The notes beneath the pieces are model-generated. The model saw only the letters and a list, made by a program, of their open reading frames with translations, had not been told where the DNA came from and did no database searches. A program made the position numbers and the translations under genes. From Escherichia phage Lambda imm434, in the sequence record OM418626.1: DNA of 47,326 nt; one strand, 5' to 3'. This document shows, piece after piece, positions 14,132-14,875 of this stretch. The first letter of the stretch is position 1. The number at the start of each line of letters is the position of its first letter.

Positions 14132-14875
14132 ATGACACAGACAGAATCAGCGATTCTGGCGCACGCCCGGCGATGTGCGCCAGCGGAGTCGTGCGGCTTC
14201 GTGGTAAGCACGCCGGAGGGGGAAAGATATTTCCCCTGCGTGAATATCTCCGGTGAGCCGGAGGCGTATTTCCGTATGTCGCCGGAAGACTGGCTGCAGG
14301 CAGAAATGCAGGGTGAGATTGTGGCGCTGGTCCACAGCCACCCCGGTGGTCTGCCCTGGCTGAGTGAGGCCGACCGGCGGCTGCAGGTGCAGAGTGATTT
14401 GCCGTGGTGGCTGGTCTGCCGGGGGACGATTCATAAGTTCCGCTGTGTGCCGCATCTCACCGGGCGGCGCTTTGAGCACGGTGTGACGGACTGTTACACA
14501 CTGTTCCGGGATGCTTATCATCTGGCGGGGATTGAGATGCCGGACTTTCATCGTGAGGATGACTGGTGGCGTAACGGCCAGAATCTCTATCTGGATAATC
14601 TGGAGGCGACGGGGCTGTATCAGGTGCCGTTGTCAGCGGCACAGCCGGGCGATGTGCTGCTGTGCTGTTTTGGTTCATCAGTGCCGAATCACGCCGCAAT
14701 TTACTGCGGCGACGGCGAGCTGCTGCACCATATTCCTGAACAACTGAGCAAACGAGAGAGGTACACCGACAAATGGCAGCGACGCACACACTCCCTCTGG
14801 CGTCACCGGGCATGGCGCGCATCTGCCTTTACGGGGATTTACAACGATTTGGTCGCCGCATCGACCTTCGTGTGA
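14132..14875 (+). CDS. K: Tail tip assembly protein K, JAB/MPN plus NlpC/P60 two-domain protein (conventional lambda annotation starts at internal ATG 14276)
   Basis: ORF 14132..14875 (247 aa). JAMM motif HSHPGGLPWLSEAD and upstream AESCGFVV Glu motif; C-terminal Cys/His (DCYTLF, HAAIY). The 14276 start would remove the MPN Glu. Confidence 0.6.
   Translation: MTQTESAILAHARRCAPAESCGFVVSTPEGERYFPCVNISGEPEAYFRMSPEDWLQAEMQGEIVALVHSHPGGLPWLSEADRRLQVQSDLPWWLVCRGTIHKFRCVPHLTGRRFEHGVTDCYTLFRDAYHLAGIEMPDFHREDDWWRNGQNLYLDNLEATGLYQVPLSAAQPGDVLLCCFGSSVPNHAAIYCGDGELLHHIPEQLSKRERYTDKWQRRTHSLWRHRAWRASAFTGIYNDLVAASTFV

Follow-up and report, generated by a model that had tools for sequence, protein, structure and literature searches.

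In the window, by which we mean the whole 47,326-nt stretch of Escherichia phage Lambda imm434 DNA that was analysed (OM418626.1), the list of open reading frames placed the tail genes in the order H-M-L-K-I-J. Gene L terminates at a TAA and, five bases further on, the ATG at 14132 opens a 744-nt reading frame (14132-14875, stop included) that specifies 247 aa and is terminated by the TGA at 14873-14875. The classical K of lambda (14276-14875, 199 aa) starts at Met49 of this longer form. A first-pass annotation, made from the letters of the sequence alone, had proposed that K starts at this upstream in-frame ATG, five bases past the L stop, and the reading frame proved to be as it described. 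The annotation had also pointed to a conserved MPN Glu motif (AESCGFVV) in the extension and to NlpC/P60-like Cys and His residues in the C-terminal half, and both were located: the Glu is Glu19, 49 residues before the first His of the JAMM motif, His68, and Cys121 in DCYTLF and His187 in NHAAIY are present. Its corollary, that a start at 14276 would make His68 residue 20 of the protein and remove Glu19, was equally borne out. The features of the locus, all on the plus strand, are listed below.

14124..14131 (+): stop codon TAA of L (14124-14126) with the 5 nt that separate it from the K start, from the sequence
14132..14875 (+): full-length K, predicted JAB/MPN+ domain followed by a predicted NlpC/P60 (C40) domain, from the ORF list, PF14464, PF00877 and an identical RefSeq protein
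14132..14275 (+): 48-codon N-terminal extension, predicted to form the helix (residues 3-15) and strands (19-27, 30-40) of a JAB fold; absent from the classical annotation
14186..14188 (+): Glu19 codon GAG, conserved acidic residue of the JAMM motif E...HxHx7SxxD
14260..14278 (+): internal GGAGG (14260-14264) and ATG 14276, the codon of Met49; SD-like, within E-P-E-A codons
14266..14266 (+): G absent from J02459/NC_001416, joining the upstream ORF to classical K, from alignments
14333..14374 (+): JAMM zinc-site motif H68-S-H70-x7-S78-x2-D81, sequence HSHPGGLPWLSEAD
14462..14803 (+): predicted NlpC/P60 domain, residues 111-224, with Cys121 (14492-14494), His187 (14690-14692) and His199 (14726-14728), from PF00877
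14773..14875 (+): overlap of the K 3' end and the I 5' end, 103 nt in different frames, from the ORFs

Spelled out in K, the JAMM motif reads E19 ... H68-S-H70-PGGLPWL-S78-EA-D81.

The window aligned end to end with the lambda reference NC_001416, except at 35587-37070. This segment, which holds the repressor, cro and nutL region, has 99.8% identity to its counterpart in phage 434, which makes the window a lambda imm434 hybrid; the swapped-in immunity region is the reason for a length of 47,326 rather than 48,502 bases. Outside the swap and its borders, the alignment to NC_001416 contained seven single-base substitutions, at 20661, 22444, 25662, 31016, 31966, 34934 and 44442 (stf/tfa region, ea59, orf61/63 and exo region, sieB, lysis region), and two single-base indels: a G of NC_001416/J02459 at 138 is missing from the window, and a G at window position 14266 has no counterpart in the reference. 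Window coordinates are the reference minus one between 138 and 14266 and equal the reference after 14266, and because of these two indels H, M and L lie at reference coordinates minus one, while the end of K, I and J lie at reference coordinates. The absent base at 138 falls between cos and the start of nu1. The first-pass annotation had suspected that the K region differs from the reference by one base; base-by-base comparison traced this difference to the G at 14266, with the reference as the outlier. In NC_001416 this ATG, there at 14133, begins an ORF of 76 aa (14133-14363) that is not annotated; its first 45 residues are common with long K and the remainder is out of frame. The reference also has an apparent gap of 148 nt between L and the annotated K at 14276, which is the largest in its tail gene block.

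The question of which allele is real could be put to the large number of sequences now in the databases. Complete E. coli genomes (3,933 records, 6,659 places compared) contained no exact match to a 60-mer of the reference without the G; the best E. coli matches to it were 98.4% identical, i.e., they had the extra base. Sequences 100% identical to the window were found in lambda lysogens and derivatives that had been sequenced independently, among them BL21(DE3), C41/C43(DE3), NCM3722, J53, HK629, HK630 and several recent lambda records. At 14266, then, the reference deviates and the window does not. A strain-specific insertion of the G was considered and rejected on the grounds that the G-less allele is absent across the E. 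coli population data. A different proposal, that laboratory derivatives acquired the G later, by insertion, and that the 1982 reference represents original lambda with a split or inactive JAB domain, could appeal to the four database records without the G, the only ones among 50,697 phage records with an exact and full match to the G-less 60-mer (J02459, NC_001416, OR474059 and OR974322). Two of these, however, are J02459 and its RefSeq copy, NC_001416, and the other two are lambda-named records that have reference coordinates at 14266. The G is present in independent lambda lysogens as well as in HK629 and HK630, the in-frame arrangement was found in every natural prophage and lambdoid phage examined, and the unrelated one-base discrepancy at 138 suggests that the reference differs at more than one such site. 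Laboratory insertion has, in our estimation, next to no chance of being the correct account.

K is an essential tail gene of lambda, and for this reason the most economical reading of the missing G is a sequencing error in the 1982 reference. This reading also draws on a commercial supplier's notes on its lambda sequence, whose reported corrections, deletion of a G at 138 and insertion of a G at 14266, agree with the alignment. The reference G at 138 may be another error of the same record.

Four independent lines, namely the completeness of the domain, the homologues, selection and the dispensability of the classical start, argue that the 48-aa extension is real coding sequence. With regard to the first, the 247-aa form matched Prok-JAB (PF14464) over profile positions 3-112 of 114 with 52.3 bits, whereas the 199-aa form matched positions 63-112 only, with 23.3 bits, below the gathering cut-off of 25 bits. 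The Prok-JAB match is near full length only with the extension, which upholds the earlier proposal that the upstream start gives a complete JAB/MPN plus NlpC/P60 protein. The extension on its own matched Prok-JAB (profile positions 3-41, E = 5.8e-05) and PHROG tail families (E = 1e-22 to 1e-32), matches that are far beyond chance, and the PHROG tail families phrog_30 / phrog_2635 matched K over residues 1-247 and 1-132. The PF00877 match in the C-terminal half (49.2 bits against a cut-off of 23 bits) took in profile positions 1-105 of 105 and residues 111-224 of K. Among NCBIfam models, the best match for the N-terminal half was desampylase (NF041370), with a score of 29.8 vs. a cut-off of 130.

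Structural comparisons agreed with the profiles. Two solved bacterial JAMM proteins in the PDB, 2KKS and 2KCQ, aligned with K from residue 4. The AF2 model of K, which was built on a shallow alignment of 15 sequences and is of moderate confidence overall (pLDDT 72.8), was among its most confident over residues 1-40 (pLDDT ~84-92). Foldseek searches with this model matched the N-terminal half to PfJAMM1, Rpn11, CSN5 and AMSH with probability 1.00, and the C-terminal half to MepS, Acd33800 and 4HPE, i.e., to MepS-type and clostridial NlpC/P60 enzymes. By profile, motif and predicted fold, the N-terminal half of K can be assigned to the JAB/MPN+ (JAMM) metalloproteases, and by profile and its Cys-His-His triad the C-terminal half is a predicted peptidase of the NlpC/P60 (MEROPS C40) family. 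The zinc metalloprotease domain would extend over about residues 1-105, with E19, H68, H70, S78 and D81 at its zinc site, and the papain-like peptidase domain over about residues 111-224, with C121, H187 and H199.

The pattern of substitutions provided a further line of evidence. Compared with three Stx-phage relatives, the extension had a dN/dS of 0.06-0.09 at a dS of 0.41-0.56, similar to the rest of K against the same three relatives (dN/dS 0.12-0.15), and 11-14 of its 15-18 substitutions were at third codon positions. In this frame the extension has evolved under purifying selection.

Alignment to K homologues, which the first-pass annotation had named as a check, lends its weight to the long start as well. 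Full-length relatives from Escherichia, Shigella, Salmonella, Citrobacter and Edwardsiella have dominant lengths of 242-249 aa, and among the 120 best cluster representatives there are 89 whose start lies 0-3 residues from lambda Met1. In an alignment of 15 homologues (67-96% identity), E19, H68, H70, S78, D81, C121, H187 and H199 are invariant; among the 95 of the 120 best cluster representatives that cover position 19, Glu is found in 93 and Asp in two. Farther afield, in 1,719 of 1,759 phage records tblastn returned a single match spanning 80% or more of the 247 aa, with relatives in HK022, T1-like, Klebsiella, Pseudomonas, Vibrio and Ralstonia phages, and all but two of the 40 matches listed began at query residues 1-8. 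In ev207, an Stx2 phage, Mannheimia phage 1152AP2 and HK022, K begins 1-10 nt past the L stop. The gene in the window has the placement of lambdoid tail assembly protein K, lying between L and the ubiquitin-like I homologues and starting at the end of L. Met49, the classical start, is retained in the closest lambda-type relatives, and 46 of the 120 best cluster representatives have Ile, Leu or Val at this position. The Stx-phage relatives have ATT or ATC in place of ATG 14276, with the GGAGG kept, and consequently can make the long form only.

Given these conservation data, the initiation signals at the two candidate starts are of particular interest. ATG 14132 has no Shine-Dalgarno (SD) sequence (anti-SD energy +0.7 kcal/mol), unlike every other late gene checked, all of which have one, whereas ATG 14276 is preceded at 11-nt spacing by a GGAGG whose anti-SD duplex, at -9.5 kcal/mol, is comparable to those of H, M and I. 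On the strength of this difference it might be argued that the classical start is right, K being made from ATG 14276 and the upstream 144 nt being an untranslated, decayed JAB remnant. J02459, NC_001416 and Swiss-Prot have long annotated K in this way, and some curated records of recent date still do so although they have the G. Such a remnant is at odds with the purifying selection on the extension, with the invariant catalytic Glu that lies in it and the Pfam domain that it completes, with its inclusion in the ORF of ~1,700 phage homologues, and with close relatives that lack the classical ATG; the frame break is, moreover, unique to reference-derived records. We regard a classical start with a decayed remnant upstream as most improbable.

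The lack of an SD at the upstream start has a precedent within the family, as the Stx-phage relatives have none at the L-K junction either. Since relatives without the internal ATG are also without an SD at that junction, SD-independent reinitiation after termination of L would appear to be the normal mode of the K family. The long form of lambda K most likely starts in the same manner, with ribosomes that terminate at the L stop, 5 nt upstream, reinitiating at ATG 14132 by termination-reinitiation coupling. As for the GGAGG, its persistence in relatives that have no ATG behind it indicates that it is explained by the E-P-E-A codons that it lies in and that there is no conserved internal start.

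A more accommodating alternative is that lambda K has two products, the 247-aa protein from ATG 14132 and a 199-aa, essentially NlpC/P60-only protein from ATG 14276. The strength of the GGAGG, the retention of Met49 in the closest lambda-type relatives and the lack of an SD at ATG 14132 would all be in keeping with a second product, and such an arrangement would resemble lambda's nested C/Nu3 or S107/S105 pairs. Against it are the replacement of Met49 in more than a third of the best cluster representatives, the Stx-phage relatives in which the GGAGG is followed by ATT or ATC, and the composition of the 199-aa product itself, which would hold half a JAB fold. Two products thus seem unlikely. 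It is very probable that lambda K is one gene of 744 nt (14132-14875) whose product is a two-domain enzyme of 247 aa, and that the 199-aa form is an annotation artefact. The origin of the artefact would be straightforward: one missing G would have broken the reading frame in the 1982 reference, and owing to this break the annotators would have chosen the next ATG with a good SD, at 14276. The strong SD at that position probably accounts for the 1982 choice of start, and it is the principal reservation about the upstream one.

The start of gene I bears on the 3' end of K. From ATG 14773, I encodes 223 aa, has an SD of -9.3 kcal/mol and matches PF06805 over positions 2-83 of 83, whereas from GTG 14872 it encodes 190 aa, has no SD and its Lambda_tail_I/Ub-like domain is cut to positions 26-83 of 83. 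As only the form from ATG 14773 covers PF06805 positions 2-83, the 103-nt K/I overlap is a true one. Both frames appear to be conserved in the overlap. The GTG 14872 start is used by PGAP, by pharokka-style annotations and in some recent records, an inconsistency opposite in direction to that seen for K.

The architecture that emerges was described in 2006 by Iyer et al., who noted JAB and NlpC/P60 domains together with a neighbouring ubiquitin-like TAPI, and whose prediction was that the JAB domain sets the Ub-like domain of I free by a cut at the C-terminal glycine of the latter (PMC1779556). Earlier still, a 2003 paper by Ambroggio et al., which set out the role of the JAMM Glu, listed lambda K among the proteins with a JAMM motif (PMC300881). 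More recently, a 2025 conference talk from the Davidson group reported that the deubiquitinase domain of gpK, the length of which was unstated, cuts the Ub-like domain off gpI (PMC12908700); in our search for gpI cleavage by gpK we found this conference summary only, and no full paper from the reporting group. In the virion cryoEM structure, only residues 135-223 of gpI are visible, and gpK is absent from the virion by mass spectrometry (PMC10721106). Based on these precedents, the JAB domain of K may act on I in the manner of a deubiquitinase or desampylase, cutting the N-terminal Ub-like domain from a C-terminal domain that would stay in the tail tip. According to PMC300881, a JAMM enzyme requires the N-terminal half of its fold as well as the upstream Glu, and for that reason the reported results on function would fit the 247-aa protein only.

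One elaboration, which would apply to lambda only and not to the K family, is that there are two isoforms, a JAB plus NlpC/P60 protein made by coupling to L and a 199-aa protein made from ATG 14276, with the K/I overlap tying production of the protease to production of the ubiquitin-like protein that it cuts. We think this quite unlikely to be so. If it were true, the ratio of the isoforms could time the cleavage of gpI during tail-tip assembly.

The K proteins already in the databases divide according to the allele. WP_000194780.1, a “C40 family peptidase” annotated by PGAP in lambda and the DE3 prophage and present in BL21(DE3) and NCM3722, has the same 247 aa and the same start 5 nt past the L stop, but is named for its C-terminal domain only, so that neither the JAB domain nor the link to lambda K is visible from the name. 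XSB40720.1 (PV340536.1) is an identical 247-aa K. The 199-aa TIPK_LAMBD / NP_040598.1 / AAA96551.1 is the same as residues 49-247 of K; it is without residues 1-48 because the DNA record is without the G at 14266, a loss that takes away Glu19 along with the opening helix and three strands of the JAB fold. In phage HK022, gp18 (NP_037679, 236 aa) is like lambda K in having JAB and NlpC/P60 domains, an L-K-I-J order and an adjacent ubiquitin-like TAPI, but the two proteins have only ~35% identity, and HK022 has a moron gene between K and I where in lambda the two genes overlap.

Comparisons with better known enzymes are informative for both halves of the protein. PfJAMM1 (5LD9/5LDA), HvJAMM1 (NF041370), Rpn11 and CSN5 share with K the fold and the E...HxHx7SxxD zinc site, and the archaeal JAMM1 desampylases, Rpn11 and CSN5 cleave after the C-terminal Gly-Gly of a beta-grasp (ubiquitin-like) protein. 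K differs from JAMM1, Rpn11 and CSN5 in its fusion to NlpC/P60, in having ~20% identity to them, and in its presumed substrate, which would be a linear fusion (the Ub-like and structural domains of gpI) rather than an isopeptide conjugate. The C-terminal half has the papain-like fold and Cys-His-His triad of E. coli MepS/Spr (NlpC/P60, C40). Unlike MepS/Spr, gpK has no signal peptide and is absent from the virion, and for these two reasons a role as a cell-wall hydrolase is doubtful.

It must be emphasized that the 247-aa K is already known, both to the databases and to specialists, and that it is no new biology. Public data contain the exact protein on 1,000 contigs or more, and it is annotated in some of the recent lambda records. 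The 199-aa form has nevertheless been retained in NC_001416, in J02459, in Swiss-Prot TIPK_LAMBD (P03729) and in several curated records that contain the G, and it has made its way into the literature: a 2020 structural review took gpK as 199 residues and reported only the peptidase domain, at 52-182 (PMC7291167), and a 2025 screen cited its lambda gpK construct under the 199-aa NP_040598.1 (PMC12236752). A literature search on lambda position 14266, or on an insertion in the tail genes of J02459, returned nothing relevant. Lambda is the reference phage, and NC_001416 and P03729 have been copied into countless annotations and experiments, in which a truncated K conceals a complete deubiquitinase-like domain. 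The practical value of the present analysis is a curation fix to the reference entries, a correction that has yet to propagate, and the correct 247-aa protein is a prerequisite for studies of the ubiquitin-like processing by gpK and gpI in tail-tip assembly, a step now under experimental study (PMC12908700).

Two minor observations concern other models and reading frames at the locus. The PHROG family phrog_7305 (76 positions, “unknown function”) matched K residues 1-76 (14132-14359) end to end with 175 bits, a match which suggests that its members derive from K genes of other phages that were called as split or shortened genes. That it had been built from the frameshifted ORF of the reference was considered and rejected, as the in-frame residues 49-76 match phrog_7305 too. 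On the minus strand, ORFs of 270 aa (13326-14138) and 134 aa (14147-14551) lie opposite L and K, and codon bias in the sense genes is the most likely source of these antisense frames.
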